Shown: piece after piece, positions 7,999 through 50,489 of the stretch
How the letters are laid out: each line of letters starts with the position of its first letter
Position numbering within the stretch: position 1 is the first letter of the stretch
NCBI GenBank assembly: GCA_030704615.1
Contig: CM060731.1
Coordinates: 15,562,001 to 15,626,000, forward strand
From: Takakia lepidozioides
Taxonomy: Eukaryota > Plantae > Bryophyta
Length of the DNA: 64,000 nucleotides
Direction: 5' to 3'
Notes under the pieces: model-generated
Told to the model about the DNA's origin: nothing
Database searches by the model: none
The model's input: the letters and a program-made list of their open reading frames with translations, nothing else
Program-made: the position numbers and the translations under genes

Positions 7999-8240
7999 TA
8001 GATATGACAATGGTGGAATTGACAAGTGATCCAAGGTCTAGCTGATGGGAGCTCAACGCCTTGGATACTTAATTGAAGATCATGGATTGTAGGAAGGCGA
8101 GTAACGATGGGGCTACTTTTGCACCCGACCTCTTGATCTATTGACTTTAGATACTGGGACATGTGCGATTGAAGACCAAACGATGATTTTATTGAGATGG
8201 ATACTTGTCAGCTATCCGGTCACCAGCTAGGGGGGGCGAT

Positions 8241-8762
8241 TGTGGCATAGCTTTCTAGGATTGAGTGCTTAGAATGTATGGTGGACAGCGATGTATGTTG
8301 TGGCACGATGCTTAGGTGCACGACAGCTGTCATGATTTTAGTCATGGTTAACTAGAATTACCTACTTCTAGTTAACTAGGACATTTTGGATATTTATATT
8401 TGTATTTTGTGTGTTGGGACTTCATTTGGTCTCACATGCCAAGTGAGGTGTCAAACCTCACTTGGGACATGGGGATGGGTTTACCCCTTGTGAGTGTTGA
8501 GGAGGGCTCATCTTCTTGTAGTTGAGCCTCCATAGCTCTAGGTATTGAGAGGGAGTGTGGTGAGGGCTTTGTAGGGTGGATTCCTTTAGTAAATGAGCCC
8601 TTGGCTTGACTTAGTTTATGTGATTGAGTGGATTCATGAGTGGAGTGTTTCCATTGTGTGTTCACTTCCATTATCATTGTGGCATAACTTTCTAGGATTG
8701 TGTGCTTAGAATGTATGGTGGACAGCGATGTATGTTGTGGCACGATGCTTAGGTGCACGACA
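8241..8762 (+). repeat. Terminal X-Y-X structure: 85-bp direct repeats (8241-8325, 8678-8762) around a 350-bp Y block starting TGTC at 8328
   Basis: The two X copies (TGTGGCATA...GCACGACA) differ at 2 positions; junction CACGACA-GC-TGTCATG at 8319-8334. Confidence 0.9.
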
Positions 8763-10523: not shown

Positions 10524-12519
10524 TCAAGGATGCCTGCCGTTTTGTAGTTGCGACAAGATAGATGAGAAGCGGCGCTCATCGTGAGCCTCATCATGTACAG
10601 CGTTCTGCAGATCTTCTCGGAAACCTTCCAGCATCTCCACAACTCGAAGCACATGGCTGCACGTGAGTGGCTCAGAGGAGCTCTTAGCCCAGGTCTGTGC
10701 AGTCCGAATGCTGTTTCTGATCTCGCGACCATTCAGCTCATGCTCAGAAAACAAGTCCAGATCAAAATCGGTGAGGCCAGCGCGTCCAAGAAAATTCCCC
10801 CAAACCTTAGCGCGTTGTGCGGAGGAGAGGCGGTGATAGCGCAAAAACAAGGAGATTCGCGAGCAGAAGGCATCATCAAAAGTTGTGACACGGTTGGTTG
10901 TGAGGAAGAGCACACCCCGATAGTATTCAAGGAGGCGGAGAAAGATTCCAGTCATAGTGTTGCGCATTGGGTCACCACCTGAAGTGCGCTTCTCTAAATA
11001 GATGTCCGCCTCATCGAGGAGGAGGACTGCACGCCAGGAAGATGCAATGTCCAGGATCTGAAGGAGCTTCGATTCCAGTTGGTCTGCTGTTGCCCCCAAC
11101 TCTGAAGCACTGACAGACCAGAGTGGTCGGTGCAGCTTCTCTGCAACTGACTCAGCAGTAAGTGTTTTTCCTGTGCCAGGTGGACCGTAGCAGAGGAAGA
11201 CACAGCCTTCCCCCTTGTTGGATATGAAGTCTATCGGCTGAGTCCTGTCCGTTGTTGTGGCAAAGGTGTTGTCGTTATCAGAGGTGCTGTTTGTTGGCTC
11301 TGGGGATCCTACATACTGGGTTACTAACCCAAGAAGCATCTTCTTTTGCACCTCGTTATTCATCACCAAGTGCCGATCGTAAGCGTGGTCGTCAAATGAA
11401 ATCTCACTGAACCCCGTGACTTGGAAGCAACCCCATTGCTTGAGGCTGAAAGAGAATAAATTCAAGACGGACCAGGGAACCTTCGAAGTGCTTGAAGCAA
11501 TGAGGTTGCGTGGAGAGCTTGTAGAATTTCTTGCCATTAGCCAGAAACGCAGATTCCATCTGTTCCCTTTCGTCAACAAATCTCATTGGGCATACAGGGA
11601 GTGAAGTGAACTGGCGCTCATTCTTGAATTGTGGAATGGTACGCTCGACCATGCACTTGCGGTAGCTTTGGCCATTGTAGTCCATGACATCCAGTTCCAC
11701 CAGAAGTTTCTTCCCCTGCATGTCTTTGAAGTACCAGATCCCGCTAACGGTGGCGCACACCTGCTGACCAGACATCTCGCAATGGTAGTAGACCTTCTCT
11801 CCGGGGCAAAGGAAAGCCCACAGCAATTCCCAAGAGGTGGTGCCCTCGCGCAGCATCCGTTCGTAGTACACCAATGTGTCGTTGTATTCCATCTCCAGAA
11901 AGCGCATCAAATGACTCAAATGCAGCCTCGCAGCGGTCTCCCCTTCTTTGAGAGTAAAGTTACGTAGTGTGTCAATGGCGAGGAAGAGCTCTTGACCTTG
12001 GATTTTTGGCTTGTCAATAAACACTTCCTTGTTAAGTGGCAAGCAATTCTTCACAATTTCGATGAGGTGGGAGGAGAAGAGGGTGACCGAAACTGCATCG
12101 GGCCAGTCTTGTTCTCGATTGTAGACCACTTCGAAAGGACTTTGTTTCGACTTCTCTTTACCTCCACTGGTTCTCAACTTGCGCTGCTTACTCCAGGTTG
12201 CTTTTGAGTACCACTCGTCGTAAGCTGGCCACTCCCAGTCAGGATCCGTCACCTTCTTTTTCTCCTTTTTCTTCTTCTTCTCTTTTTTGTTCCCCTTCTT
12301 GTCATTCTTGTTCCTTAGTCCGCCAGGAGACTCTCCCTCTTCCTCTTCCTCCTCCTCCTCCTCTTCCTCCTCCTTCTCTTCCTCCTCCTTCTCTTCCTCC
12401 TCCTCTTTCTTCCCGCTCTTCTCAACCTTGGGCTTCCCCTGTCCTCTCAGGGTTCCCAGCTTGTAAGCTGAGCCCACCAAGCACAACACGAAAATCCCAA
12501 GGATGATCAGAGGATCCAT
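10524..12519 (-). pseudogene. Intronless AAA+ ATPase of the fungal-type family (N-terminal membrane anchor, acidic/Lys tract, conserved N-domain, AAA core), split by a frameshift near 11450
   Basis: Walker A GPPGTGKT, Walker B LLLDEAD, LRLLEYYRGVLFLTTNRV..FDDAFCSRI, lid LNGREIRN; N-domain SWELLWAFLCPGEKVY. ORFs 11404-12519 and 10524-11579 overlap in different frames. Confidence 0.85.
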
Positions 12520-14555
12520 CTCTCCAACACTCTCTGCAGCGGAGTGAGGATGACTAACACTCGGTACTCCTGTATCACTCTCCCAACTGAGCTGCCCCTT
12601 TCAAATTGAGAGAGAATTTTATACACACTGCATTGTATTGTTTGTACGCTGCAGTGGCTTGCTGTCCAAGCCAAACATCAGGCTCCGAACTTCCGCGTTC
12701 ATGGTCGGTACCAAAGCTGGCGTGACTTCCTGTGCACAAGGACTCGGTCAGACGAGCGAGCCCTGCAGATTCACAGTTTGACGAATCCGTCGGAGCGCAA
12801 TTGCAGAGAAGGCCATCTACCCCTCAACTGCCCACCTATAATTTGAAGTACTGGAAATTGAAAAACACACAAGTTTAACAACCCCTCCTCACTAATTTGA
12901 GGCTACAGACTACAGACCCACCTAGATTCAACCGTGAAATGAGTTCATGCATCTAGCTAACCAAAAATGATATGACGTTTCGCAAGGGTCAGGATTGCAT
13001 GTGGGTGCAGATGAAAACAAGGAAGGTCGAGATATCAGTCATCCCCCAAGGTGATCCTACATCCTTGAAATCGTATTTTTCTTCCATAAGTTAATCCAGG
13101 AGGCCGCCTGGGAGAGCTTGTACATGAAGTGACGTAATCACCAATTACCGCATATTACACATAGTCTTGACGTCCCACCGCTGCAGCTTTGCGGTCAGCA
13201 CTCCCCATTATATGAGGTAGAGTAGGTAGCCCAATGGTTGGGTATTTGTGCTTTGCTTGTGCATAACCTAGGTGATCTAGGGTTTAAAGTGTCCACTTTC
13301 CAACAAAAAGAAGTAATCCTTGGATGAGGAGACACTATAATCCAAGGTTCTTTGGGGAGGAGTCCTCTTTCTTTTCTTTCTATGATGCGGATTGTTTTCC
13401 TTGTGGCTCCTTTGCAGTGCCATTTAGGGGATTAGGTAGAGTCAAGGATTGGCACCAAAATATTTCACTTGTTATTTTGTTACTGTTTTTAATTTTTAGT
13501 TTCTCAAAAAAATAAACAGGGGACAGTGGCCCTGATAAAGTTTATTTGAAATTATTTTGGGGAAAAAAATTAAAACCCCTATTACACACCCCACATTAGT
13601 TATCATTTATGAAAGGGAGGTAGTCCTTGAAGACGGTATTGGCTGTCTTCTATGCATCATGTTGCAGTCAACGGAGAACATGTGGTCAAAGGACCTTACA
13701 CCATGGTAAGGCTCCCATTGGTGTGTTGTGCCGAGTCATGCCACTCAGTCTCACCTCCCCTTTATGTTTTCCCTAAGCAAGAGAGCCCATTGTGTTTCAG
13801 GCTTGTTAAAATTTGTTCAGAAAAATCCTGTTGGGTTTTGATGATCTTTGTTGCCCCCGAGTTCCCTCTCCAAAGAAGGGTGAGAGTCACCTAAGAATAT
13901 ATGAGGCCTCCTCAAGGAAGCGAAAATTATGGTGTCTCTTCCCCCCCAAGGGCTACTGCTATTGTGACATCCATCGGTGGATTGAACCCACAACAACTTC
14001 CGAGGTGTTATGTCGACCATTAGCACTAGGCTACAATTTGGTTGGACCGTCCTAAACTAACTCTAAGGCTCTAGAGGGAGGCGGGACCAGGGCCTAACGG
14101 GCCGTTTCTGCAAAACAAACAGTGCTCCCCACCTACTTGAAGTCCCAGAAGGTACTACGGCCACATACCATACCGACACATTAGAGGTTCACCCAACTAT
14201 GCACCCCTTGTAAGACCCAATTTCTCTATATTCTCTTTTCCTCTGTGAGCTTGGGTGCTAAAGCGGGGAAATAGCCAGTAAAGCACGCCAAGCTAGATGG
14301 GAAGGATCTCTCGCTAGAGGAGCCTCACAGGTGGGCCAACCAAATCACATGCAGGGGTATCAAGTGCAAATCATCCAAACACCAGGCACATCCAAATACA
14401 CTGTCTTGATCACCCAAAACATCCCGCGTTTGGCATAAGCCATCCGCTTTTTATATTAAGAAAATGGCTAATCTGGAATGGCAAATGGTGGCCTCTTATT
14501 GGCTGCCAGGATTTCTTTAAGTTTCTCCCACACATCAGCAGCTGTCAAAGTAGGT

Positions 14556-14684
14556 TACTGTTGGAATGAGACAAAGGCCTTGGCTAACTTTAGGTACATT
14601 TAATCAGCCATACCAACCACCCTACTTTTCATCCAGCTTACGAACAAAAGAGCATCTGTAATAGGTGGAATACTCCATCTTACA
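14556..14684. repeat. 129-bp terminal direct repeat, copy 1 (partner 36005-36133)
   Basis: TACTGTTGGAATGAGA...CCATCTTACA; 2 mismatches between copies. Confidence 0.95.
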
Positions 14685-15077
14685 TATGTAAGACCCGCCC
14701 ACGCCAATTAGGAGTGAGCTCCAGCGAGCTTCCGCAAGTGTATCAAAGCAAGGCCTACCGAGCCAAAAATCAATTTCAAAAAGAAAGACTAGGCATCCGA
14801 TAGGAGAGGGATGAAAAAACCTCTGGGGAAAACCTTACCCTACAAAGTGGGTGAAGGATAAAACCCCCAATAGGAAAAACCCCAATCCATACAATTGATG
14901 CAAGCTCATAAAAGCAGTTCTGTAGCTCTCATCTCTCTCACAATCAGATGTCTATTCAAAAAGACGAAAGCTAGCTGGTGAAGTCAAGCCAAGCCCAACC
15001 AAACAAAGCTAATGCAGCTCCACCACTGTACATAGCCAAGTTTTAAAAAGCAGAAAGCATGAATTCATGATCTGCAC

Positions 15078-18000
15078 TCATGCAGCACGGCCAGGGGTTA
15101 GAACAACACGACGGCCCTCTACGTTAATGCAAGTGAGATCAAAAACTAGTTTGCAATGCACAAGAGAATCAAGGTGGACAGTGTGGGAAAGAGGAGGAAC
15201 AGAGGGATGTTGAGGGAGCAGCCGATACTGTCTCCCCCGCAAGACTTCCGTAATAAGATATGGGCCCTCGATACGTTTGGTAGCCTTGGAAATGATCTTC
15301 CCTTGCTGAAGCCGCACACACACAGATTGATCCTGCAGAAATTCTTCTGAATAGCACACACGTCGGTTATAATTGCGAGCCTGAATCACCTGAGCTTTAG
15401 CTATGTTGGTTTTAGCAGAGGATATTAATTTTTGCCTCTCAGCACTCATCTCAACCAAGAATGCATCTCAATCAACAGGGTCAGTACTGACAGGAATCAA
15501 CGGAGTGTCATGCAAAGGGCTGTGAGCAAGTCTGTCATATACTAGCTCAAAGGGAGTATACCCGGTACTTGCTTGAACTGAAGTCCTATAAGCGAAAATC
15601 AAAACTGGAAGAGCCACATCCCAATCACCCAACAGAGAACCATTTTTCTCCATCATGGAACACATGGTCTTATTGAATCGCTCAGTCAGACCGTTGCACT
15701 AGGGATGATAAGGCGCCGTGGTTCGATGCTTTACCCCAAGATTGAAGCATATCACTTGCATTAACTGGTTGCAGAACTCTGTACCCTGATCTGTAAGTAT
15801 CTCAAGAGGACACGCGTGTCTGAATGATTTCATCAAAGAAAAACTGTGCGACTGCATCTGCATCCTTCGCGGCCAAAGGCAGGACCTCCACCCATTTAGA
15901 GAGGTAGTCCGTTGCTATGGCTATGTAGGAGTGGCCCTTCTCTGTGAGTTTAAGAGGTCCAACAAGATCTAAGCCCATCCTATCAAAGAGACCAGTGACA
16001 GGTATAGGCTGCATGGGTAATGAAGCGCGAGCCCGAGGAAGCAATGTCTTGGCATGACATTCAAACACATTGAGAAACAAAGGAGGCAACGTCCTGATGC
16101 ATACCCTTCCAGGTATATTGTTCTTGCAAACGCTTGACAATTTTTGTCATGCCACGGTGACCAGCAAAAGGTGAGGTGTGATATAATTCAAGCAACTCTG
16201 GAATAGAGCTCCTATTAGGAACATCCACGGATTTGATAAGGCCATCCAAGACAATTTTCTTCAACAATTTACCTTCACGTTCCACATGACAGGGAAGGTG
16301 ATAGTTAACTTGCATTTGAAGTGTCTTGGAAATACCTGGGAGTTGTGTGCCGGCCTTGCACTTGTGGGGAAGGGCTGCGATCAGGGAGTCATCCATGCCT
16401 ATCATGCACAAAGCCAAAGAAACAGTGGGTTAATAGCAGGTAATCAGAAGTGTCCGCCTCTGTGGTCTTCAAATAATATAACCCTGCATCGCATCTGAAT
16501 CAGGCTTACATATGAAGGTAGGCTGGGCATGAAGTACAGGTCCTAAGGGAAGTATCCATAAGAAACACGTGGCCATGAAAAAGAAGAAGGGTACAACTGT
16601 AGTAACCAGGCAGCATTGATCAAGCAAATAGGACCAATCCAGACACGCAAGTACAAAAGTGACCATCTCAATGAACATCAAAAGTGATCAGATCCCCTGC
16701 AGGTTTAACGGCATAGGGCAGCTCATCCATCAAGCTAAAAAAGGATGCATGTAGATATAAATCAGGCAGTGAACGATCAGGATTCTGCATGCGAGCCAAA
16801 TCATCCAGAGTCGTGTAAGGAACATGGGTCTTGGTCTCTCCCCTAGTAAGTGCATCAGCGTTGCCGTTTTCTTTCCCCTTCTTGTAAACTATATCATATT
16901 CAAAACCCTGTAGATGCAAAGACCATCTAGCAAGCCTGCCAGATAATTCACGAGGAGTTGTAAGGGCCTTGAGAAGGAGATGATCGGTCTCCACGGTGAA
17001 ATAACAACCATGCAGGTACTGCCTGAAGTGTTTCACCCCAAAAATTACAGCCAACCCCTCCTTGTTAGTAATACTATAATTTTTTTCATGTTTATCAAAT
17101 TGCCTAGATGCGTAAGCAACGACATGTTCTCTACCATCTCGCACTTGGCTAAGAATTGCAGAAACAGCCATGTCACTGGCATCTGTTTGCAAAAGAAAGG
17201 GAAGAGAGAAGTCTGGAAAAACCAGCACTGGAGCAGTTGTGAGGGCTATCTTCAGCTGTTCAAAGGCCTTGGTCTCAGGTATGCCCCAATGAAATCGAAC
17301 ATCCTTGCATAGAAGTATGAACAATGGACCGGCCATGTTAGCAAAATGGAGGATAAATCATCTATAATAAGAGGCAAGTCCAAGAAAGGCACGGACACAA
17401 TGTTTGTCATGAGGAAGAGGGAAGTCCCATACTGCCTGGATTTTGCTAACATCAGGTTTGATGCCTTCCCCACAAAGGATGTGACCAAGAAATTTAAGTT
17501 CTGCCATGCAGAAATCGCACTTTTTGGCCTTAACCTTGAGGCCTGCAGCTCTGAGACGACACAATACACGCTGCAGGTCAATGAGGTGAGAATCAAAATT
17601 AGCAGAATAAACATTTATGTCATCAATGTATACTAATGCACATTCCCATCTCAGATTGCCAAGAACCACATCCATAAGCCTTTGGAATATTGTTGTGGCA
17701 TTACAGAGTCCGAATGGCATGGTTTCGTATTGATAGATGCCATATCTGCATGTAAAGGCCGTTTTCTCTTTAGATGCTTCTGTCAAAGAGACCTGCCAAA
17801 AGCCAGAAGCTAGGTCAAGTGAAGAGAAAATTGTGGCTCCACTAAGCTGATCCAGGGTCTCGTTAATTCTTGGTAAAGGATATACATCCTTCTTAGTCAT
17901 GGAATTGAGCCGTCTGAAGTCAACACAAAACTTGGTGGAACCATCCTTTTTGGCCACTAACACGATAGGACTAGCCCAAGGTGACATAGATGGGCGAATG

Positions 18001-19298
18001 ACACCAGCATTCAACATTTTCTTAATTTCTTCATGAACCACTGCTCTCTCACGAACTGACTCGCTGTAGGCATATTGTTTGACTAGATTCCCATCAGTGA
18101 CAATCTCATGATTCAAAATACTGGTCCGACCAAGATCATGAGATCCTCTACTGAACACAGACAGGTTTCTTCGAATCAAAGCATGTAACTTAGCCAATTG
18201 AACCTTAGTTATATCACCCACCTGGATCTCGGCCAACACTTGAGCAAAGTGCTCCTCTTGCTTGGTGGTGAGAATAATGTCATCACTGACTGCAACAATG
18301 TTGGTCATGGCAATAAGGCTGTCCATAGGGCTGTCTACAAGTCCAATGTCATGAAAATTGAGAGCAGGCTCTACAGATTGAATTTCAGTCAAAGGCAAGG
18401 CAGTGAGTCTAGCCATAATCTGTCCCTTCTTGATTGTGACCATCATACGCTCAAGATTAACAAGGAGTAATCGGATTTCTCCTCTGTACCCCCTGTCTTA
18501 AACCCCAGAAGCCACCAAGCAGTGTTTCTGCAAAGATAATTTCTTCCAGCCTTCTACTTCCATGTACATGTCCTTGGGGCAAATAAAAGCCAGACCTATG
18601 GGGGCCAAGATTTGTAACATTGCAGGCAAATCAATATCATGATGAGCCCTCAAAAGTACGGAATTATTGGGAACAGGAAGAGGGGCTAGTCCAGTCTTCT
18701 TACCTGGTCCAGGCAAATGCCTTTGAAAAACGGTGGTGGCCGACTCATTGTTGAAATTAAAGAATCTGGTCCAGTTGTATGTGTTACAAGCTCTTTGGCG
18801 TATTTCGTGAGCAGCAGCCTGCATCTGAATAAGATGCCAAGTGGAACTCCCAGCCATAATACGGACAGAGTTCAGGTTGACTTTATGCCTTGTACCATTG
18901 CCACCACTCAAGGTCATGACATTCGTATGTAAATTGATTTCTGCCCTGGCTTCCCACATCCAATCTAAGCCAATTAGAAATTGCTCTCTCATAGTGACAA
19001 TTCCAGTCACCGTGACCACCGTACCAGCAATTCCAATAGGCATGGTTACAAGCCCTAACGGCTTATATTTGGTACCATCAGCTATAGTAACCTCCAGCCC
19101 TTTGGCAGACACTAATTTTAATCCCAACACTTGGACAACATGTAAAGGAACAGCAGAGACTGTGCATCCAGTGTCAACAATGCACGAAAAAAACAAATGC
19201 CCTACATGGCATTGAGTAAGTAGTGGGTATATACGAACCTTCTTCCTGGGTTTAATCACTTCTGTATGTAGCAACTTGAAAGTATCAGAAACAAGAAC
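15078..19298 (-). pseudogene. pol: Gypsy pol: aspartic protease, dUTPase-like, RT, RNase H, integrase (decayed)
   Basis: IVDTGC (~19170); GV*DRGYRGEI and KGQIMARL (~18405-18505); SPWASPIVLV, YPLPRI, MPFGLCNA, YIDD (17619-17630); QTDASD, ETDH, NADALTR; GHRG, DLVGPL, TGYTPFELVY. Confidence 0.93.
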
Positions 19299-20763
19299 GC
19301 TATGTCCACATTTCCCTGGATTATGCCTGCACGAAGCAAGGCCAACTGCATTCAACACCCTCCACTTTATTATAGTATTGCAGCAACATTCAAAGCACTT
19401 CAATTTGTATCCATCGAGAACATCTAGGCTAGAAAAAGACATTGTTGCAGCATAACTTAGGAAAGTACTTCTCCCCTTCCACTACACACATGAAATGAAA
19501 GAAGCCAACCAACAGCATACCATCCAAGAAAATATGAAACCAGCCAAGAAATGAGCCAATATATGCAGTGAAGGTCGACACTAAATGAAACTTATCCAGC
19601 ACTTACATTAGAGGAGGGAAACTGAGTTTTACCTCCATAAGCTTGCCCACATCAAATTTGGGAGCTTTCAAAAAATTTCTTTTCCGGTTGAATGAACTTG
19701 ACTACAAGTTCCTTCAAATCACAAGTTTGAGCTTCACACACAATGAACTTACAGGGATTGAGCTTCCAATGCGAATCAGAAGTCTTATATTGATAGCATT
19801 GTTGTAAAACACATGGACCAACAATGACAGTCTCTGGAATGACATATAGTATAGTTTCATGTAGTATGTCGCACACAACTATGTACCAGTGATGTGGCTT
19901 CTTTGCCACTTGCCTCCTTTGCCCATTCAGCCATCTCCACATTGCCACGGACTCTGCATGCACCACGCAAGGCCATCCACAACATCCTCTGGAAATGCTA
20001 TAATCAGCCATCTCCACATTGCAATGGATTCTGTCCGCACCAAGCAAGGCCAACTGCATTCCGCAGCCTCCACTTTATTATGGTATTGCAGCAACATTGA
20101 AAGCACTTCAATTAATATCCAACAAGAACATGTAGGCTGGAAAAGAAAAATTATTGCAGCAGAACTTACGTTCGTATTCCTCCCCTTCCACTACACACGG
20201 GAAATTTAACCCCTGGTACCTCAACATGCTCCCCTTCAAGCTCTTCCAACTCACCAACATGTCGCTCTATCTTTGCTCCCACCTCCTCACTGTATTTGAT
20301 CCCCATGAAAGCAGCCAAGCAACAAGATACCAGCCAAGAAAACAGCTAATGTATGCAGTGAACGTCGACACTAAACTGAAACTTATCCAGCACTTAAATT
20401 AGAGGAGGGAAGCGAGTTCTACCTCCATAAGCTTGCCCACATCAACTCTAGGAGCTTTCATAATATTTACTTTGTGGATGAAGGTGTTATATATAGGATA
20501 CATACTGGCTGATATCTTCTCAATGTCTTTTCCAATCACCTCTGGATGAACTTGGCTACAAGAACCTTCAAATCACAAGTTTGAGCATGCACAATGATCT
20601 CCCTCATCTTCCACCGAAGCAAGTCGAGACATGATAACACTACTTACATCAGGCTGCATGTCGTGAAACTGGTGAAGGACCTGCATGGAAATACTGGCTG
20701 CATACAATGTTTTGCAGTGTTCCTGACAAGCAACCACCATTGCAACCGTCATGTTCTATGGAA

Positions 20764-20806
<43 letters not shown>

Positions 20807-22275
20807 TCTTTCCCACTCACACATGAACCTCAGAAATGGACATCACTGAAACGCCTTCATTATCCCCAAAAACTATTGGCTGGTGTACTTGAGGTTCTAT
20901 TCCGAGTGATAAGAGCCCCATACTAGAAGCAGCACTGCACCCACTTAAAATGAGAGTAACCTAAAAGTTAGTGAGGATATTGCGACCCTGCACATTCTTG
21001 ATGAAGCCAGTTTGACAATTCGTAGAGAGAACATATATACTGGCGGTCAGCTTCAACTTTTCCTTTGTAATATCTTCCATTATTTGACCGGCCAACCTGT
21101 GATGACGACAATGCTACCCATATCCTAACAGCATTGCATTCAAAAAGAATTCCCAAAATCAAGATCATGAGGGGAAATGTGAAGTTCCCTTTGGAACCTT
21201 CCACATAGAATGAAGGGTTTGACAGCGAAATAAGGACAAAAAAGGGGAGGAAGATGTAGGTTCCGATTGGGATTTCGCATCGGGCCTGTAGCTTCATGAT
21301 GGTGATTGGTTATAACTGCTAATGGAAGAGATGTAGACTTGGCAGCAGATATTTAAACGTTTCGATTATAACTTACCAATCTGACACCAGATAACCTTTG
21401 TAAATCCTATCGAACTCTCCCTTCGAATTCGCATTGTCGATGCTTCCATACATGTCCATGAAGGTAGCGTTCCAAATTTCTTCAAGTAGATGCAGTTCTC
21501 GCCTGTGATATGATCACCATGCTATCATGCAATCATCGCATTTGAAGACACAACCCGTCGTTCAGCCATACTGACACATTCCCTCTCTGCAAACTCCACG
21601 TTCCAAATGGCATCCTCTGCAGACTCTCACTTTACAGACTCAATGAAGAATGCGACTTAGTGCTCTACGGTAACTATAAAATGCTTGAGCTATATCAAAC
21701 CAATAGGAAACTAACACATGTACCAAGCTGATAGGATTTCGGCAAACATGGATGGATGAGCTCATCCAATGGATGGATCCATTCATGTATATGTCTTCAA
21801 AATGACACGTGTACTAATAAAGTCATATAAATGCCTTTAAAATGCCATGTGTAGTGATGTAGTCATATATATAGAGTCATGAATCAATCTGCAGTCAGAC
21901 AGTCATAAGTTTACATGCCATGTCATGTTGTGGATGAACTCGTCCAATGGATGAATACATTCGTGTATTTGCCTTCGAAATGACACGTGTAGCGATGTAG
22001 TCGTATAATTAGAGCTGTGAAACCATCTCCAGTCTTGGAGTCATAACATTCCATGAAACGTCGTCCACGTGTAGTCAAACATATCACACTAGTCATATAA
22101 ACCATCCATGTCATCGTGGTCAACAATGTTTGACCAAAGCTTCATAACTTTCCGGAGTCATGTAGTGATAAAACTATGACTGCAACGCATTTCGGCGCTC
22201 TGTAATCATCTACCTAGTGCAGTTTTTATGACTCCGCCAAAGCCGTAGTCCTAAAAATGTTCATATCTTGTAGTG
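19299..22275. mobile_element. Inverted left arm of the CACTA element (TIR at 22247-22275)
   Basis: Ends ...TCATATCTTGTAGTG (reverse complement CACTACAAGATATGA...) followed by GAC; AGTCATA subterminal motifs at 21820-22250; 19690-20000 is an inverted homologue of 24240-24550. Confidence 0.85.
20767..20808. repeat. (CT)n microsatellite
   Basis: Visible TCTCTC run. Confidence 0.95.
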
Positions 22276-22836
22276 GACAGGTGACGGTTTCTTGGTCTAG
22301 TGCTTTCCTTTTGATTACAAAGTTGTAGTGAACTGTTGGATGCTTACAAGAGCTAAGTATAGGCTTTTAAATGATCAAGACAGTGAGATGGGAGAGGTGA
22401 AGGACCCTTGTGAGCAAATTTTTGAAGCCAGTGGACCCAGTCTGAGTTCACAACGGGCGGAACAAGGGTTCCTGGGCCTGAAACTCAACCAAGTGTGGCC
22501 ATCTAATGTTGAACAGCAAGCAGGTTGTCGCGCACCTCACTTCGGTAAGCTCCCCTTCAAGTCATAGTTACTCGCTTTGATGCGCGCGCCTAACTCCCAA
22601 CCTGGCCGCCGGGCCAACTCGGAGCTTTGGCTGCTCACCGGGACATAACGGTCCCCCTTTACTCCCCCAACAGACCCTCCACCAATTTGGGCCTAGTGGA
22701 AATTCCCTTTGGTAGATGGCAGTCCGGAATAGCTCCCCACTCCTTGGTCGCTTTCCGGCTCGCTAGCTTACTCACTAGTTTTTGGTCACCAATGGGCTTG
22801 CACCGTTCTCGGGGTCACAAACAACCATGCCATTTT

Positions 22837-24190
22837 ATGGCGAACCACCATGGAGACCCTCAATTCCCGGTGATGAGTCGCGGTGAGTCTTGGCCCACCC
22901 ACCACGGCCCCATTGGACCGTGGTGAGTCCCAAGACTCCCCACGACTCCCACCACAAGGTCTCCGCCCCATGGTGAGTCCTATGCCACCCCCACTAAGTC
23001 CCACTAAGCTACCTCCACCCCTTGTGGAGCCACCCCCACCGCAACCCGGTGTGCGGGGCTCCACCTAGTGAGCGCCTCCGCCTCCTTGAGTGCCTTGGGC
23101 ACTCAAGGGTGCTTCAGCCCCCCGTACCTATTGCTGCCACCTCCCCCACCACAGGGGCAGCTTCTGCGTCCCGACCCCCTGCCCTCAAGGCAAAGGGCCG
23201 CAACACAGGTGAACCAGAACTTGATGAGTTGTGCCATGCTATGCGTCTCATTTCTGACTGTCCTGCTTTATTGGACTTGCTTCTTGCTAAACGTACTCAA
23301 AATGTTGTTGTGCCTGCGAAATCCCTTGAGACCCGCATGACGAAGCAACCTTATCTAGAATACAAGGTGGGGCAGAACTTTGATAATTTCATCACCTTTT
23401 TGAGATGAGTGTGAAAATGAATGCAGTTTCACCTGCCTTTGTCACCAATGCCTTTCGTTTCTGTCTCAAGGGGGAGGCCCGAGAACTCTTTGAAACCACT
23501 ATCAAAGATCTGGGTGATGTGTCATGGTTTGAAGCTAAGGGTTTAGCTGAACAATTGTTTCATGAAGAAAAGTTGCCTAATTACTGTGTACCTGAGAGAA
23601 GCTACAAAGAAGGAGAAAATATATACAAATACTATAATGATATACGTACAGCAGTGTATAAGACCGTCCCTATTCTCTCGGAAAGGCCATTGGCCATTAA
23701 ATTAGGCTTCATCAGAGGACTACCTCTTGCAGAGCAGGTATACCTGCAATGAAACAAGTACTCCACCAAAAAAGAAATGGTTCAGTTAATAGAAAAACGC
23801 TTGCGCACTAAAGCAGCTAAACGGGGAGTTGTACCCAAAATTCCAGCCACACACATGTTGATTGATGCTTCGGACCTGATTGTGGGCACTAACAAGGGAA
23901 AGGCTATGGAGCCTGCAGTTGTACGAGATGTGCAGGAAACAGTCAGACTTGAATTACAAGCCTTTAAGGCTGATGCTCGTTGGCAGGCCCCCTCAAATTC
24001 CAACCCGAGTGGTGGCAATAGGGGACGTACTAATACTGGTGCTAGTATCAAAGCCATGTAGCATGTTACATCTGCAAAAGCAATGATCATGTCACTAGGT
24101 TTTGTCCTTACCAGGAAGATTTGCCAGGGATGATTGAAACCTTTGAAAAAAGAGAAAGAAAAGAAGGGTAAGGCTCGTTTAAACGAATAG
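22837..24190 (+). pseudogene. gag: gag of the dUTPase Gypsy element (on + because of the inversion)
   Basis: Pro-rich N-terminus, capsid-like FRFCLKGEARELF...GENIYKYY...FIRGLP, zinc knuckle CYICKSNDHVTRFC (24064-24105), gag end KARLNE* at the TTTAAAC slippery site. Confidence 0.85.
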
Positions 24191-24218
24191 GGTTACCTGT
24201 GAATGAAGGGACAGGTGA
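24178..24218 (+). promoter_or_regulatory. Putative -1 programmed ribosomal frameshift signal (gag/pol)
   Basis: Heptamer T TTA AAC at 24178-24184, 8-nt spacer, hairpin TTACCTGT-gaatgaaggg-ACAGGTGA (24193-24218); gag-frame stop at 24188-24190. Confidence 0.65.
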
Positions 24219-24991
24219 TCGTGGAATTAAGCCTTCTGAATAGCATTTCCAGAGGACGGTGTGGATGGCCTCACAATCCAGCATGCAAAATCCATGGCAA
24301 TGTGGAGATGGCTGAATGGGCAAACAGGTTAAGTGGCGAACAAGCCACGTCATTGGTACATAGTTGCATGCTTACATAGTACATGAAAGTGTACTATATG
24401 TCATTCCCGAAAATGACTATGTTGGTCCATGTATTTTACAACAATGCTATCAATAAAAGACCAATGGTTCGCATTGGAAACTCAATCCCCGTAAGTGGCT
24501 TGTGCGTGATGCTCAAACTTGTGATTTGAAGGATCTTATACCCCAGTTCATTGCAGAGGTGATTGGAAAAGACATTGAGAAGCCAACAGCCGGTATCTAT
24601 CCTCTACAGATCATGTGGGAAAGCCGGCTGGCTGGAGGTCTAGTCTCAATTTCACTCATCTAATGTCAGTGTTGTATCCATTGCAATGTGGAGATGTTTG
24701 AAACAACATTGGAGCATTTCCAGAGGATGGTCTGGATGGCCTTTCATGACGTGTGCCGAATCCATGGCAAGAAAACATTGCAGGCAAAACCCATGGCAAT
24801 GGTACCAGCACGGGTTGGTCCAAAGCCAATTGCAACAACAAATGAATAAAGGGTGTTGAAAGGAAAGCACTCCATAATTGATCATAATATCCACTGTCCA
24901 AGCATGATATCTTAATGGGAATGCGAAGGGAGTGTTACCACCTTAAACTATCATGCATGGTCTATAACTGGAGTGCACAAATCTAGCATAT

Positions 24992-27900
24992 CTAATCTTC
25001 ATCATCCTCATTTATGTCTGGGTCATTGCATGTATCATTGTCTTCACCACAGACTTGATCTTGTCCAAGGGTTGGCTGAACATCATCACCACGTATACGG
25101 GGTGCTCGGAGGTACAAGGAGGCCACCTGCTCTACAGTAACCGGTACTGCTCGGCTGCATGTTGGGCCATCAGTAACCAGAGTCTCCTCTAGTCTTTGTG
25201 GGGCTAACAATCCTTCCACTTCCGCCACATCATCATTATCAATTGATATGTCGCAAACCACTCTACGTGCTCGGGGGCTCTTCTCCAGGACGACTTTCCA
25301 CCCCGGCTCCTTCACACAATAAAAAAAAAAACACTTGATCAACCTGGCCAGGAAACACAAAAGGTTGCTTAGAAGGTAGAAGCATACGGTTAAAATTGAC
25401 CAGTGTGAAGCCATCATCATCCCGCTTCATTGACATAGGTTGACGACCCACGCGACGCGCCCGTACCCACGAACACAAAAACACCATGTTTTGGCTGTGT
25501 TTGGCCATAGTCAATTTGCAAAATCTCCCTTATAAGACCCACATATCTTGTAGGTTCCTCCATGTCATTGCCTGAATTGTTGGTAATGGGCTGCTGCTGG
25601 AAAACAGATGAGACTCCACAATCAAAAGACACCATACTTGTTGTGTTCATGCCGGGGGATGTAACCCTGTAATGGTTACCATACGCTGTCATACTCTTGA
25701 ATGACAGGGCAGTAAATGATGGAGGCCTTGAAAGATCCAGTAATTCCTCACGTGTTGTAGGATCAAGCCCATCTGATTGAATTGAGAGATGATCCCGTAC
25801 ACCTTGAGGGAGCCAAACAGCAAATGGAGGACATGGATGCAAATCAGGAGGGTACTGAATTGCCGTGGGATTGCTCATGCCTTCCAGCCCTTGCTCCTCA
25901 CGAAACAAGCGTCGTCCGGCTTCTATCCGTGTGGACTCTGCTTCATATATCCTGTCACAATCCGAGGGTCAGCCAGGAGATTGACAGAGGTGGCGTGGAA
26001 GATATGAAAAGACACAATATGCCAACTAATGAGAAATGACTAAAACTTGGAAATCTAAATGTCAATGAAGTAGATTTCTTACCTCAACATGACTGACAGA
26101 CGAGGATGGTTCTGAATGTTGTACTCCTGTACAATATCACGCAGGTCATTCAATTTTCGGGCTTTAGAACTTCCTTCCACAACTTCACGTTCCACAGTTC
26201 TGCCTCATCTGCATCCCACACCATTCGTACACTTCCATCAAATCCTGCCATATACTCTGTGCAAACACCCAATGCTTCTTCAAATTGGTATCCTTTTGCC
26301 ATGCTCCCCTCGGGCCTTGCCATGTTTCTTACGTAGCCCTTCATATCTTTCATTGCCCGCTCCATGGGGTACATCCAACGAGATGCTACGGGCCCGCATA
26401 AGTACAACTCGTCCACTAGGTGAACAACCGGATGTGTCATCACATCAAAAAATGATGGTGGGAACTCATTCTCTATAAGACACAGAGTGACAACTGCTTC
26501 AGTTCTCAATTCCTCATACTCTAGATACAGGATTCACCACTTTTGTACACAACTTCTTAAATACACGAGAATGGCCCTGCGAGGACCACTTGCCATGAGC
26601 CCACGGATAGCAAGCGGTATAATTTGCTGCATGAGCACATGATAGTCATGTGATTTCATGCTAGACAATTTCTTCTTCACCACATGCTTTTTGAAAGCTG
26701 ATGCGTAGCCTGTTGGCACTTTCAAGTTCTGCACAATCTCCAGAAAGACTTGTAACTCAGCCTCAGTGAGGACATAAGGGGCAGGAGGCATAATTAACGT
26801 ATCTGCTCTGTCAGGAGCCACAATTCCGGGCGCATCCCAAGTAGCTCCAAATCACGGCGAACTTTCAATGTGTCTTTCTCACCAAAGATAGTTTTAATAA
26901 TATTTTCAGCCAAGTTCTTCTCGCAATGCATTGCGTCAAACGTGTGGCGGATGATGAGACCCTACAAAATGAACACATAAGTAATTGAGCATTTACTCAT
27001 CACAATTTAAACAGAAAACGCAAAAATGTACACAGCCAATTTAAAGGCCATGAAGGAATTGCCTCCCAATAAGGTAAAACATATAAAATTGACAATCGCT
27101 TAGCTCCATGAGTTTTTGCTGGGTCTGTCCTGCTATCTGGCGTCCCTCCGTTTTCCACCCATGCAGTGCGAGCTGTTGCAAGCTCCTTGATTTGTGTTCC
27201 AGTCTGCGTTTTTGGAGGAGTTCCATGCTCAGTAGCGCCATTGAACATTCTTGACCTTCTATATGGATGATTGCGGGCCAGAAATCTTTGGTGGCCTAGG
27301 AAAACAATTTTCCCACATGTGTGTAACTGCTGTGAAGTCACCCCGGGTCCATAAGCTGGACAACCAGCATAACCTTTCGTCACTTGACCTGAGAGCAAGC
27401 CATATGCTGGGTAGTGATGGATTGACCACATCAACACTGCCCTCAGTGTGAATTCGCGTTGACCACGAGGACGGGAAACATCATGAGCTGCAATCCCTCT
27501 CCATAGTTCCAGTAGCTCTTCCACTAGGGGCATCAGGTAAACATCTACGTTGTCCGAGGTAACAGACTCCTTACCAGGAATCAGTAGCGCTAACATGACA
27601 AATAACTTTTTGGTCATTAACCACGGAAGCAGATTGTAATTGACCAAGAGAACGGGCCATGTGCTCCAACTGGTGGATTGAGCTCCATAGGGATTTACAC
27701 CGTCTAAGGCCAATCCAAATCGCAGAGATCGTGGCTCTGCAGCAAAATCCTCAAATGTGGTATCAATGTGTCTCCATGCTTTGCTATCAGCTGGATGTTG
27801 AACCAACCCATCATGGCTCTTATGTCTGTCGTGCCATGTCATGAGGTTAGCGATCGATTTACATCGGTACATACGTTTCAACCTTGGAATGACAGGGAAG

Positions 27901-29134
27901 TGTCGCAATACTTTCTTGGGCACACTTCCACGACCTGGAATGTAACGGGAACTGCGGCACACTGGGCAAATGTCTACATTCTCATACTCCCCACAGAAGA
28001 GTACACAACCACGCTCACAAGCATGTATCATGGTGTACTGCAATCCCATCTTGGCAATCATGGTTTTTGCTTCATAGTGAGTTTTCGGCAATGACTTCTC
28101 TTCAGGCAAAAAACTCTTACACAACAATCCCAGAAACTCATCCACAAATGCATTGGTGCACTTGTGGGTAGTGCATGCGTTCAGCAACGTCAAAGTTGCT
28201 TGCAGCCGGCTGATCGAGCACCCTTCAAAAAGTGGACATTGCGACTATCGGAAGAGTTTATCATACTTGGGATCAACGTGCAGGTGAGCATTCTCATCAA
28301 ATTCATTGTCTCCGGAATCGTCGAGGTCGTCGTCATGATCGGCAAATGTGTGATCGGTTCCACCATGAATGGGGTCCTCTCTGTTTGCATCTGCAAAGAG
28401 AAACGCTTCCTACAATACACAGTGGATTTCTACCTCCAATCCACCACCCTCATATGCGTTCTCTGTGACATTGGGCTCCCGTTGTGCTGCAGGGCCTTTG
28501 TCTTCATCATCTGAATATTCACATCCCTGCACCCCAATAGTCATCTTGTGAGTGGACCAACAACGATGTGACACTTGTTCATATTATGACATGGGAGGCA
28601 CGGTGACGTTGCAGTGATGCAGTCATATTTACGTATGTATCTTATGAATATACACCCAATCAAAACACGACATTTGTAGCCATTGAAGTCATAGTTGCAG
28701 TCACTTAGTTAGTCATATATGACTACATGACTACACATGACCAATGAAAACATGACATGTACATTAATTAAAGTGATAACGGAAGTGACGTAGTCATAGT
28801 CACGTCTGTATCTTATGACTTCTTGACTACAATCACCCAACGAAAATGTCGACATGTGGAGAAGATGATCGTTGCATTCAAAATTCAAACTAAAGTGCTA
28901 AAGGGAAAGTGGCGATCGTACCGGAAGAGAACAGTGTCGGAGAAGAGGATCCCTCTCGTGTATCATGTAATGATTCCTCACTGTTTCCGACAACAGTAGT
29001 TTTCCTCCATGACACTCATCGCAGTTGCATAGCATTTTTGTATGCCCATTCCTTGTGGCATAAGCTTCTTCCATTCGCCATAGACGATCATCTATTCTAC
29101 GCCTACGCATCCGGTCGTCACCTGCACTGTACAT
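24992..29134 (-). pseudogene. CACTA TnpD-like transposase (transposase-associated domain, Transposase_21, DUF4218, DUF4216), spliced and decayed
   Basis: MLCNCDEC...VRNHY; IHACERGC, RHFPVIPRLKR, GLALDGVNPYG, WSTWPVLLVNYNL; KSHDYHVLMQQ, FPPSFFDVMTH, RWMYPMER, RPEGSM; YVGLIREILQIDY, PFVFPGQVDQVFF. Confidence 0.93.
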
Positions 29135-30606
29135 GCTTTGAACGTCACCCCTTCCCTCTTTGCATGCTACGCACAGTGCATTGTCTCTTGTTTTGCACCA
29201 GCTGCCAATGTACTATTTCTATATTTATAGTATACTATAAGTATCGTTTCTGAGTGTCCATGGTGAAGCGGAAGGTCTTCGAAGTGACAGTCCCTCTCAC
29301 TGAGTACGAGAAGTTCCGAGAGCACCGGATTGCTGCCATAAAGGAGGTGGAAGCAACGTTCAAGCAGTCGATAGATGGGTGAGTTTAGTTCCTGACTTTG
29401 GTTACCCACCCACTAAACTTGCGATTCGCCTTATCCTCTGACCTTCCTACAGCTCTCATAAGCTTCATAGCACAAATGGGGGCGAGTAGCTGCGACTTGT
29501 ACAAACAGAGAGGCAAACAACATGTAGTGAGTGACGATTAGGTTTGAGGAGGGTGTGTCATTAGGCGGGAGATGTCCGCCGTCATTCGTGGGCAGCCATT
29601 ACGTCCTGGTAGGGTGCGGCTGTGGTTCAGCGTAGGCTTAAGAGTATTAGGGTATGTATGCTTGCATTTGTTTGTGATTGTTTGAGAGGGAGGTCATGGA
29701 GGTATTTGTGCAGGCTTGCGGGAGCGAAACGCCCTCGCAAGCCACGCGCTCCGAAGGAAAAAGCTAGGGATCAAAGTCCTGCAAGGCAAAGTGCCAGACT
29801 GAAGACAATGAAGACTACGATTCTGTATGAGGGCTCTTCTGAGGACGATGAGGACGATCCACTCCTCCCACGCCAGTGTGAGGCGAGTGCGTCGTCGGCG
29901 GATGCCACGGCGAGCCGAGGAGAACATGCCCAAGCTCATGTCGCAGGACAAAAACGCCCATCATCTACACTATGAACACCTTCTCCGTCTGTGGGTTATA
30001 GTTCTTCACAATGACCATGATTCAAATTATGTATGTTTTTGGTAAAATCACGAAGAGATAGGGTATGGTAAGATCATGAAGAGATAGGGTATGTCTGTCA
30101 AGACAGGGAAGTTGGACAATGCAGGGATCAGCCAAGGCACAATCACAAATGATTTCCACTAGACAAGTTGAAGTGCCAAAGGCACGATGTCAGCCCAATG
30201 TAGACTTCAGGTGTGTTCAAATTCTTTGCCCCATGAAACCAACGTCCTGGTACTAAGCTACAATGGCTACTTATAGAGATACTTGGGTTACTTATGCACC
30301 CAGAATATCAGTAAAACTTGGAGGGATACTTCTCATGGACCCATCAGGTTTGTCCCTTTGAATTCTTGCTATGGATTTCAGGAACACCCCATACCTAAGA
30401 GGGTTCAAAAATGTACTAGAAGGACATCATTGGGGCCAATCAAATTTGGGAGATTTACTGCCCAAGATCATACTGAGTTTTGGGTAATCTTGTCTTTACA
30501 AATCATATGTGCTTCCAGTTTGTTATCTTGAATTCAAGGATTTGCTTCTTGCTGCCTATATGTATGTGTAATCACCCACATTGTACTGGGGGAATTTCTT
30601 TTCAGG

Positions 30607-33111
30607 GCAAGCACAAGCGCACTGGATCCACGATCCCTGCTGCTAGCAATGGAGATGGCGCCCACAAGAACGCAGGAGGTGGCCATAACTCTCCCATCGT
30701 TTTGGGTTCTGTGCCACCAGTACCCCCACCTTATTATGGTATGCCTGAGTACCCACAGTCTGGCACTCAGTATGGTCAGGGTCAATATGGTGCTCCTCCA
30801 TATGGGCAATATGGCCAGTATCCTCCTCCACCATATTTGCCACCCCCTAATAGCTATGGGGGTGGCAGACCACCGGAATATCCTCCTGCTTATGGACAGT
30901 ATGGCCAGTATGGTCCTCGGCCTTCTGGCCAACAGCCATGGCCACCAGTCCCTACTTGGCAGGATCCTACTGTGAATTCTCATGTGCGTACGGAGGTCTC
31001 TGAAGGAGGGGAGGGTGCCGTTTCAAAGAATGATAGAACCAATGCTTTAAGGAGGGCTAATAGCTTAGCCAAAATTGAAGCTGCCAAGGTAAAGGAAGAG
31101 AGAATAGTTGCAGGTCTTCCTCCCACGGTGATTGTGACGAACCTCAAAGGAGCCCCGTATGGTCAGACCCGAAATGTATGGCACGTTGCCCTTAAAGGAC
31201 AGGCTTATCGCAAGCTAGATTGTTCCCTTGCCATCAACAACCAACCTGATGAACTTGTATACGAAATCAGAGATCACCTGGCTAAGCTATTTTCATATAC
31301 GCCACACAAGTTAAAAGACTTTCACCTAAAACAAACAATTGGCAGAATAATGAAGATCCAGTGTTATGAAGCACATACTGCGTGGTTGGGTGGTAAGGGG
31401 AAACCCATTACTGTATCTGACGAGGTATAGAACAAGCTTGTAAGTTACTGGCAGACAGAGGTGTTCCACAAAGTGTCGGGCAACATGAAAAAGGCAAATG
31501 GTGCAATTCAGAATCCTACCAAGATTGGCCGTGGTGGGAAGGCAATGGTGGAAGCACGCTTGGTAAGTGGCATCATCACGACTCTGTATTTTGTTCCTCA
31601 TTGAATTGCTATGTGTATATAGTCAGCCCTCACATTGCTTACTGACTTGTGGCATGGGTTTGTTTGTGGCATGGATTAATTAATTTGCAGGAAACCCTAT
31701 CAGGGTGCCCTCCTACATTATATGAAATTCAAGAGGGTTCAGTGTCACGGTTGTCAGCTGGGAGTGACAGGCGGGTAAGTATGTTTTCCAAGTTTGCTAG
31801 AGTGGTTGCTGCATCATAGGTTGCTAGGGTTTTTTTCAAGGCTTTTGGCCTGGGTTTTCTTTCCAATGGTTGTTCATGCTAGGTTTTTTTTGTTTGATTC
31901 ATACTTGGGCAAGTTTTCATGGATTGGCAGGAGGGAAGTCTCGCATATTCTACAGTAGTTGGCAGGATGGATGGCTTGGACAAAGTGGTGGAATCACAAG
32001 GACGTGACATGGCAGACTTAAAATTACAGATGCAGAGCATGATTGAGTACCAGAAAGCCATTGTGGCCAGATTGGGGATTAATCTACCAGGCGCATGACC
32101 AGTGACATCTACGATGGATGCGTCTGCTGTGACAATATCAAAATGTTTGGAATCCCAATTTCAGACGGTAACTGGTGCTCACTCTAAGCCCTTATGTCTT
32201 CTTGTCACTGATGATCATTTGAATTTGACCGAACAACAGCAGAATACAGGGAAGGCCAGCTGTGAGGTACACGTGGAAATTCAGCCATTGCCACGTACAA
32301 AGGCAGTAGCAATCCAGGGGGCAATGGTGACAGAGCCGCCTGGCACACCGGATTCTGGTATGCAGGTATGTGGGAGTTTAAATGGGGAGGAAGATGCAGA
32401 CGGGGACAAAACAAACAAGCATGTTGCTTTAATTTCTCCTACTCACATGTTGAAGCCAAATGACAGTTTACATCCTGGACCAGCGAGGAAGCATTTACTA
32501 ATTCTGGACTTAAATGGTCTGTTATGTGAATCTTTTCATTTTGCTAATGGGCCTGCATCCCTTCCCAAAGGTTTTGTGGGGAAGATGTGTGGCAAGAAGA
32601 TGGTAATTTGAGACCACGCTGTTATGACTTTTTGCAAAAGTGTTTTGAACACTTTGAGGTGGTGGTGTGGTCTTGTTACCAAGCTCGCAACTTCTTCCCA
32701 ATGGTGGACTATATTTTTGCAGCCCACATTAAGCTGGTTTTCCAGTGGGATGCCCTTCACTGTGATGAGGATCCAGTCCTCTCATGCCGTAAGGGGTCTG
32801 ATTCAAAGCCATTATATTTCAAGAACTTGTCTAGAGTGTGGGCAGACTGGCCAGAATGGACTTATGAGGACACTGTTCTTGTTGACGACACACCAAGAAA
32901 GGCGGCAAACAATCCTCCCTTCAGTGGGATTTTTCTAGAGCCATGGAAAGTGCAACCAGATTCACCAACTGATGAGTATCTAACAGAGGTGTTGTGGCCT
33001 TTCTTGTGGAAGGCATCGAAAGTTGCCAGTATTCCCAAGTTTTTGGATTCTCAGCTTGTTTTCGGACAACAACCATACAACACTGCTACTGTGAAGGTAC
33101 AAACATTCTGA
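30607..33111 (+). pseudogene. CACTA TnpA-like gene (Transposase_24-like) with C-terminal FCP1/NIF-like HAD domain; exons ~30607-31562, 31691-31774, 31931-33111
   Basis: V*NKLVSYWQTEVFHKVSGNMKKANG...GRGGK; GT-AG phase-0 introns; coiled-coil exon in frame with ORF 32102-32611; LLILDLNGLL, RP...FL, VVVWS, KNLSRVW, TVLVDDTPRKA. A probable further upstream exon lies near 29715-29950. Confidence 0.72.
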
Positions 33112-33649
33112 CAGTGCTCCAGAGGCTACAAGTTTTGTGGGTTCATTCATTGCATTGCTTTCCTGGATGCTTCTCCTCGGTTGCTTGATTAATGCTAGGT
33201 TTTCTTTGCAGGTTTTCATGTTGGCTTTTTTTGTTTGATTCATACTTGGATTTTGTTTCTATTCACTATTCATGTTTGCTCATTGCTTTCCTGGTTGTTC
33301 TCTGGTCTGTGACACAGTTTTAAAATGAAAGTGGATTAAATGATTTAAATTCTTCATTACATGGTGAAATTCCAACATGAAAACAGAATGGATCCCTCCT
33401 GCATACTATCAACCACAAGGAGAATGAAAATAGTCAACTACAGGGGAATACAAGCCCTATAAATCACATTACAAAAATCCAAATGAGACCAATGTCCCAA
33501 TGGACACCTCAAAAGCCACAAGGTCAAAAAATCCATGCCTCAAAAGGCCCAGCAAAAAACAAGCAAGCCCACACATGGGCTGAATTATTGTAGCTAGTAT
33601 GTTCTGGTGCTATTAGAATCAAGAACTCTATTAAACATTGCAATATTGA

Positions 33650-33930
33650 CTATCCCTTCTGCAGCTCCATAAGTTTCAGTAACTTTAGACTCCAAAGTGT
33701 TGTCTGGCCAACCACCTGCCCCAACTCGGTATGTTTCCTAACACCATTCACATATGATAGAGGGGTGTTACTGACACATGCCTCTTTGATGTACACATAT
33801 GCATAATCAAGGGGCACAACAGGGTACCCGTAACCCACCACAACACCTTAAAGAGCAACAATCAGCCCTACTCCAACTTTCTTGCGTTTGGAGTTCACAT
33901 CGAACAGCCGAACCTCGTCACCCACCCTGA
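33650..33930 (-). pseudogene. Tnp1/En/Spm-like domain fragment
   Basis: EVRLFDVNSKRKKVGVGLIVAL*GVVVGYGYPVVPLDYAYVYIKEACVSNTPL...LGQVVGQTTLW resembles the CACTA Tnp1 C-terminal pattern. Confidence 0.55.
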
Positions 33931-34279
33931 ACTGTGATCCCAACTCCACACAAAAAGAACACGATGTGAAAACCCATGACATACACACGACTAGGACACT
34001 CAACATTTGCGAATTAAAGAGAGCCCCAAGGTTGGAAAAAATAAAACAAACAAGACAAGGGCCTGGACTTACTCCATTTGCAGTCTCGAGTGGTTGTGAG
34101 ACCTTTTTTGGGGGGCTACTCGTCGGGTCGACACTCTTGCCCTTGGTCTGTACCGGCTTATCGACATATCACCTTCCAAGGCTGCAATCCCCCTGTTCTT
34201 TTAAATATTAAATGAAAACTAAAAATTAAAATATAAACATTAAAAAATATAAACTATTTCGGAAAACAATCTTGATGAC

Positions 34280-34970: not shown

Positions 34971-34988
34971 CGCTCATCTTTTGTAGTG

Positions 34989-35885: not shown

Positions 35886-36004
35886 CGCACTTGCTCACTG
35901 CACAACAAAACACAACTAAAACGAGAGCTACAAGGTGACGGGTGAATAAAGAGTATGGCATGATGAACGCCGCCATTGCAATCTTCAATACGTACGACCT
36001 GCCG

Positions 36005-50400: not shown

Positions 50401-50489
50401 TTCCAAACCATAAGCCGCAACAGGTTCTCTACCCGATTACCTTGTGGAGAGGGGGTACGTTAGAGACAGGTTCATGACCGGTTTGTCAG

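Follow-up and report, generated by a model that had tools for sequence, protein, structure and literature searches.

The 64,000 nucleotides of Takakia lepidozioides DNA analysed here (the window) carry on the minus strand a Gypsy retrotransposon with the order A (129 bp)-internal part-B (10 bp)-TA-A-X (337 bp)-B and a 4-bp target-site duplication (TSD). This inserted form is best explained by a cDNA with a B-TA-A-X repeat at its ends, whose ends were joined and which was then cut by integrase at the inner CA-TA-TG, a reading to which we assign a probability of roughly 0.6. We infer both the end joining and the integrase cut at the junction from the layout of the sequence. The minus-strand Gypsy with the TA junction (14209-36133) is called family 2 in the following, and a second Gypsy family in the same window family 1.

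In its own sense (minus strand), the family 2 element starts with TG at 36133 and ends with CA at 14209. The left terminal block A1 (36005-36133), probably shortened in this copy, recurs as A2 at 14556-14684 with 2 differences over 129 bp (98.4% identity). A2 is preceded by a 2-nt spacer TA (14685-14686), by B1 (14687-14696), an inner 10-bp copy of the right tip ending in CA, and directly before B1 by a G-rich tract (14697-14705), which from its position and its GGGCG ending is likely the polypurine tract. The same ending was found at the same position in family 1 and in Gypsy-7 and -8 of Chlamydomonas. In the terminal 1 kb of the element, a purine run of at least 9 occurs only at 14231-14244 (minus strand), just before B2 and not before B1. 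Downstream of A2, 347 bp (14555 to 14209) terminate in GGGTCTTACA and consist of X (14219-14555), present once in this copy and multi-copy in the genome according to contig depth, and of the right tip B2 (14209-14218). The 10 bp of GGGTCTTACA are the longest stretch common to the right end and the sequence preceding the junction, in agreement with the preliminary description, which had reported only 10 bp as shared. The spacer is the centre of a perfect 16-bp palindrome (14678-14693) with 7-bp arms. As the window contains 5 palindromes of at least 16 bp, this length alone says little; the chance that 10 bp of the terminus recur precisely 2 bp ahead of A is about 1e-6, or 6e-6 if spacers of 0-6 are allowed.

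AGGG on both flanks (36134-36137 and 14205-14208, minus strand) represents the 4-bp TSD (chance p about 0.003). Removal of the element and one AGGG restored a degenerate host tandem repeat (67 bp, 89.6% to the upstream unit), which independently ties both ends to one insertion. Block A, the palindrome with its 2-nt spacer and the TSD were thus all found as previously described. Zero-mismatch run contigs cross the joint with the right flank (13900-14290) and that between A and the internal part (35919-36051), so that neither is an assembly artefact. The 14.6-21 kb between the ends are heavily interrupted, and what links the two ends is therefore the TSD together with the restored flank repeat, and not a spanning read.

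Pfam matches and translations revealed a broken pol (15150-19300, minus strand) with an aspartyl protease (about 18957-19193), a reverse transcriptase (RT, 17475-17954), an RNase H (16902-17288) and an integrase (about 15150-16210) that is spread over three frames and whose pieces align to rve-bearing proteins. The order PR-RT-RH-INT with a Gypsy-type RT is that of Ty3/Gypsy elements, as are TG...CA ends with a TSD within 4-6 bp, and the closest solved relatives of the RT were Ty3 chains (E 6e-50). A dUTPase-like piece at about 18390-18530 was weak (E 0.0014, below the Pfam cut-off). As in-frame stops and frameshifts interrupt pol, the element is, judged by its coding content, a dead Ty3/Gypsy retrotransposon with a DDE-type integrase. 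Three features of such elements are missing: instead of two complete LTRs, 129 of 476 bp are repeated in this copy; B1-TA separates the G-tract from the TG of the 3' LTR, where an adjoining polypurine tract would be expected; and the first TGG of a possible primer site lies 29 bp after A1. Present are split direct repeats in the A1-B1-A2-B2 order of PAT/Ngaro, with a B of 10 bp and the extra X. A Pfam scan of 32 frames of at least 150 aa gave no match to a tyrosine recombinase, and the RT is of the Gypsy and not of the DIRS type. By these domains, the element is not a PAT/Ngaro despite the common repeat order. Neither methyltransferase nor PHD appeared in the translations or the Pfam scan of family 2, this copy being broken and interrupted.

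Between pol and the left end, about 15.7 kb of nested or rearranged DNA (19300-34988, approximate borders assigned from Pfam, repeats and translations) include a CACTA-type start at 34988, a Tnp2 transposase (27000-28244) and an inverted gag-like piece at about 23300-24150, which may be the gag of the family 2 element itself. On either side of this plus-strand piece, which has a CCHC knuckle, lie direct (19299-20600) and inverted (24240-24770) repeat blocks. The CACTA-type element (25000-34988) contains Tnp2, a NIF-like phosphatase piece (32548-33111) and a 100-bp tandem near its start; no matching TSD was found for it. A 306-aa frame, open from stop to stop (34974-35894, minus strand), had no homologue by search and no Pfam family, and the DNA just upstream of it is multi-copy by contig depth. 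The window further contains an AAA ATPase of possibly horizontal origin, whose DUF7025 and weak fungal-type lid domain lie in two overlapping long frames (10524-12600, minus strand), pieces of a SPOC-domain gene with breaks (36892-39884, plus strand), presumably FPA-like, a weak SET-domain piece (44976-45629, plus strand) and a long frame with a poly(A) run behind it (60428-63503, plus strand), whose look we take to be LINE-like. No tRNA genes were found in the window.

Contig depth from four runs, all of one sample and in summed form warned to be no copy number, gave 15-23 times the flank for the internal part as a rough figure, which marks family 2 as multi-copy. In all four of these runs X was as deep as or deeper than A (summed contig depth ratios of 1.06, 1.40, 1.22 and 1.37) and 2.2-3.2 times deeper than the internal part. 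Within 13 bases (35989-36001) the depth dropped from about 300-700 to 98, with one copy corresponding to about 68-72; the linker between A1 and the internal part is thus near single-copy, and the region behind it is multi-copy. A TGG primer site was not found directly after A1. From the depth of X relative to A, the near single-copy linker and the missing TGG, it is probable that this copy has lost X and the primer site by deletion, leaving the 129-bp left end, and the left end of the family more likely corresponds to the right repeat minus about 10 bp. Against this, free A-X-B minis could yield the same X/A depth ratios. The earlier statement that the 5' end carries only the 129-bp A hence stands for this copy and is not supported for the family. 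The preliminary description had also named two full 476-bp LTRs in other copies, and hence a mere deletion of the 5' LTR here, as the result that would speak against it; as such a deletion would leave the junction in place, this test is too coarse.

Among the contigs listed, the junction was found in diverged copies in stretches of 210 bp (23 differences) and 264 bp (28 differences) running from X through A to 14706, with the junction-crossing contigs extending 22 letters past A, below the 31-letter bar for a bridge. As these contigs are diverged, the junction is a trait of the family. At least 9 contigs diverge from A at its first base, a mix of junction-type and flank-type. The bin with the last 15 bp (14209-14223) stays one copy deep in X1 and X3, where block X is about 40-50 times deeper. 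B2 is consequently not confirmed beyond this copy, which counts against the end-joining reading. A comparison of termini with other copies, as suggested before, therefore confirmed the junction in the diverged contigs listed and showed the ends only in part. No second full copy of family 2 was seen among the sequence examined, and a left end of A plus X is therefore a prediction of the model. A metagenome scan with the family alignment kept 80 loci of 331 relatives (best identity 49%), and 0 of the 11 placed on the RT tree fell into the family 2 clade; the A-B-A-B layout was absent in a repeat and junction scan of 81 loci, many of them too short, and in a reading of 7. Viral-contig scans gave one distant locus only. 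The only match of a genome-contig pattern scan (L082) turned out to be a chance 30-bp match in a bacterial record and had no other similarity.

The same architecture was found in family 1. Repeat comparison of the 3' end of copy 1 (8225-8762, plus strand) gave a G-tract, B1 (8239-8325, 87 bp), the spacer GC (8326-8327), A (8328-8675, 348 bp) and B2 (8676-8762). B1 and B2 are 97.7% identical, and their shared part begins right after the G-tract; the 5' end of this copy was not found within the window. Copy 2 (48013-57950, plus strand), assigned by homology and end comparison, has the order A-internal-G-tract-B with the TSD AACT and no repeat pair. Its A-like start reached a homology score of 126 versus 57±8 (maximum 86) in 200 shuffles, and its 5' block matches the entire B1-B2 interval. 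This plus-strand Gypsy also has motifs at about 53370-54130, which we take to be C5-methyltransferase-like, and a PHD-like end. The integrase of family 1 showed 47% to a K. nitens protein with PF00145 and 71% to Calypogeia and Sphagnum proteins; by sequence similarity, family 1 is kin of the Klebsormidium element KnitGypsy-Dnmt3.

The RTs of families 1 and 2 share 42% identity. In quick trees (LG+G4) of chosen subsets, with 65 and 30 rows for RT and 50 rows for integrase, the family 2 RT fell into a starred clade of its own, apart from the likewise starred one of family 1, KnitGypsy-Dnmt3 and PHD-bearing green-lineage Gypsy elements. A joint RT clade of both families was not rejected (p-AU 0.52, 30 rows), and the integrase tree put both on one side of an unstarred branch (support 94, with a long-branch warning). 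These protein comparisons show the two families to be distant. The preliminary description had called them unrelated, which goes too far: the RT phylogeny it proposed as a check separates them into starred clades, yet does not reject a single clade.

Outside the window, one of the closest parallels is Gypsy-7a_cRei of Chlamydomonas reinhardtii, for which 86 new insertions in one strain and a left LTR without the last 8 bp of the right LTR are reported in the available part of Craig et al. (PMC9940879). In the library entry from its supplement, the internal part starts with TGG and ends with a G-tract, those 8 bp and GC. Within the part of this supplement at hand, whose entries are consensus sequences with borders read by eye and entry ends inferred from file order, a tip copy plus GC beside the LTR was present in 11 of 19 two-part Gypsy families, at the end of the entry in families 2, 3, 6, 7, 8, 9, 10 and 11 and at the start in 5, 21 and 24, which are apparently reversed entries. 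The junction was absent from the entries of the other 8 (1, 4, 12, 13, 15, 16, 17 and 19); the count excludes 14, 18 and 22, which are single entries, and 20 and 23, which have an LTR entry only. A mirror layout was considered for 5a, 21 and 24, but reversed entries explain them better, by the end motif for 24 and presumably likewise for 5a and 21. All 11 junction families in this material have the spacer GC, and the tip copy measures 6-8 bp in families 2, 7, 8, 9, 10b and 11 and about 49 bp in Gypsy-3 and -6.

Family 2 resembles Gypsy-7a and its Chlamydomonas relatives, as far as their entries go, in being a DDE-integrase Gypsy with a tip copy and a 2-nt spacer between G-tract and right repeat, and it has the same 7+2+7 perfect palindrome form as the Gypsy-2 entry. 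It differs in its spacer, TA versus GC in the Chlamydomonas families. Gypsy-7a has a PHD finger and a TGG primer site; in family 2 the primer site is absent and no PHD was seen, the left block measures 129 bp, and a weak dUTPase-like piece is present. Among the Chlamydomonas families, the left repeat without the tip is stated for Gypsy-7a only in the accessible part of PMC9940879, which remarks on the missing 8 bp and contains nothing further on the junction or on the pattern in 11 of 19 families. For KnitGypsy-Dnmt3 of Klebsormidium nitens, the legend in De Mendoza et al. (PMC5890265) gives the repeat structure of DIRS elements, A-coding-B-A-B, and the portion of that paper available holds no junction, TSD or mechanism. 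Like this element, family 2 combines Gypsy domains with a DIRS-style repeat order; unlike it, it has no methyltransferase seen, belongs to another RT clade and has a B of only 10 bp. PAT, Ngaro and VIPER likewise show the order A1-coding-B1-A2-B2 and use a tyrosine recombinase, according to the excerpt of PMC4157794, whereas family 2 has a Gypsy RT, a DDE-type integrase, TG...CA ends and a 4-bp TSD. With two families in the window, KnitGypsy-Dnmt3 and 11 of 19 Chlamydomonas families, the suggestion that the layout is a heritable feature of replication rather than an accident is supported, and the spread is wider than had been proposed. In the openly accessible papers searched, no description of the junction or of a mechanism was found. 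Already in print is the oddity of the layout, unexplained in two figure legends in the parts of PMC5890265 and PMC9940879 available; apparently new, to judge from these searches, are the palindromic junction, its spread over algal families, a distant second branch with a TA spacer, and the proposed mechanism.

Standard reverse transcription sets the ends of the cDNA by a primer site behind the left block and a polypurine tract ahead of the right repeat. For family 2, the plus strand would be primed at the G-tract before B1, and reverse transcription would give a linear cDNA with a B-NN-A repeat at each end. These ends would be joined as a two-repeat circle or a head-to-tail dimer, which would create the X-B2 joint, and integrase would open the B-NN-A junction of the left repeat by staggered nicks after each CA. 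Processed retroviral ends carry 2-nt 5' overhangs, and a 2-nt spacer nicked after CA would leave similar ones; strand transfer of the cut ends would then produce the 4-bp TSD. B2 would be the left tip of the cDNA relocated to the right end, and a cut at both junctions, or recombination between B1 and B2, would yield the repeat-less A-internal-B form as at 48013-57950. The family is predicted to have a left end of A plus X (466 bp) followed by the primer site; in this copy, a later deletion has likely removed both X and that site. Such end joining would account for the identity of B2 with B1, the shared part beginning at the G-tract, the left repeat without the tip and the repeat-less copies. 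Its directly visible components are the layout, the 4-bp TSD, the DDE-type integrase, the G-tract before B1 and the junction in other copies. A mirror product from the other choice of junction was not seen, and the model gives no reason for the left over the right junction. Similarly, HIV-1 integrase cuts the palindrome at the 2-LTR junction, and integration can draw on 2-LTR circles, as reported in the accessible portions of PMC1905944 and PMC4372172, and the excerpt of PMC1180852 adds foamy virus as a further case of junction cleavage. The palindromic CA-spacer-TG junction of family 2 resembles these retroviral circles, in which, by the same excerpts, integrase cuts the junction and the product can integrate. 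In retroviruses, however, the junction consists of the joined cDNA ends and is a side route, whereas in family 2 it is encoded within the repeat itself and would serve as the regular route.

The 129-bp A could instead be the true left end of a native split-direct-repeat design, with X as a spacer and the inner B-TA-A as the template for the end junction. For PAT/Ngaro, an inner repeat joint has been proposed to serve as the template from which the end junction is rebuilt. An exact contig crosses the A-internal joint and shows it to be real, and the order equals that of A1-B1-A2-B2 repeats and of KnitGypsy-Dnmt3. We consider this design unlikely: it would require the copying of X from beyond A2, the depth of X is no lower than that of A, the stretch linking A1 to the internal part is close to single-copy, the 5' block of family 1 covers the whole B1-B2 interval, and the left end of Gypsy-7a, in the part of the source available, is short by 8 bp only. 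Self-priming was also considered for family 2 and is unsupported, the longest complementarity of A to the next 205 bp being 7 bp plus a 5-bp hairpin.

An equally doubtful reading is an ordinary element with two 476-bp LTRs, in which the 5' LTR was deleted, the plus strand starts 12 nt early and integrase trims B-TA from linear cDNA with no joining at all. It would fit the TG...CA ends of A-X-B with their 7-bp inverted repeat and the similar depth of X and A at about 2-3 times the internal part. It gives no reason, though, why the trimmed piece should equal the right tip (10 bp in family 2, 87 bp in family 1, about 49 bp in Gypsy-3 and -6), and it conflicts with the left LTR of the active Gypsy-7a, described without the tip in the available text, and with copy 2 of family 1, which has no LTR pair. 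Still less probable is a one-off event, in which an A-internal-B monomer without repeats was joined via a circle junction to a separate A-X-B mini and co-inserted with it. Although a monomer form is present in the window (48013-57950) and tandem LTR insertions are described as common in plants in the sources at hand, diverged copies again show the junction with X-A on one side, a monomer lacks the terminal redundancy for replication, and the layout is the consensus of many algal families in the entries available. The joining of cDNA ends followed by the inner cut therefore remains our preferred reading.

Whether circular cDNA is a regular precursor of integration is an old question of retrovirology, and in the retroviral literature at hand circles are usually regarded as dead ends for the most part. 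The layout of family 2 is the expected trace of obligatory end joining with an inner cut. As an element with the same junction jumps today in Chlamydomonas laboratory strains, the question of a circle precursor is directly testable there, and a second Gypsy branch with a second spacer (TA) points to the 2-nt geometry and not the letters as the conserved feature. More tentatively, and with slightly less than even odds, end-joined cDNA may be the regular integration substrate in at least two distant branches of green-lineage Ty3/Gypsy elements from Chlamydomonas to bryophytes, with an integrase junction encoded in the repeat and ends permuted at each insertion. If this route is indeed regular, programs that need two equal LTRs would miss or misdate such elements. 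The numbers of Gypsy copies with unequal LTRs or no repeats in algae and bryophytes may well be underestimated.
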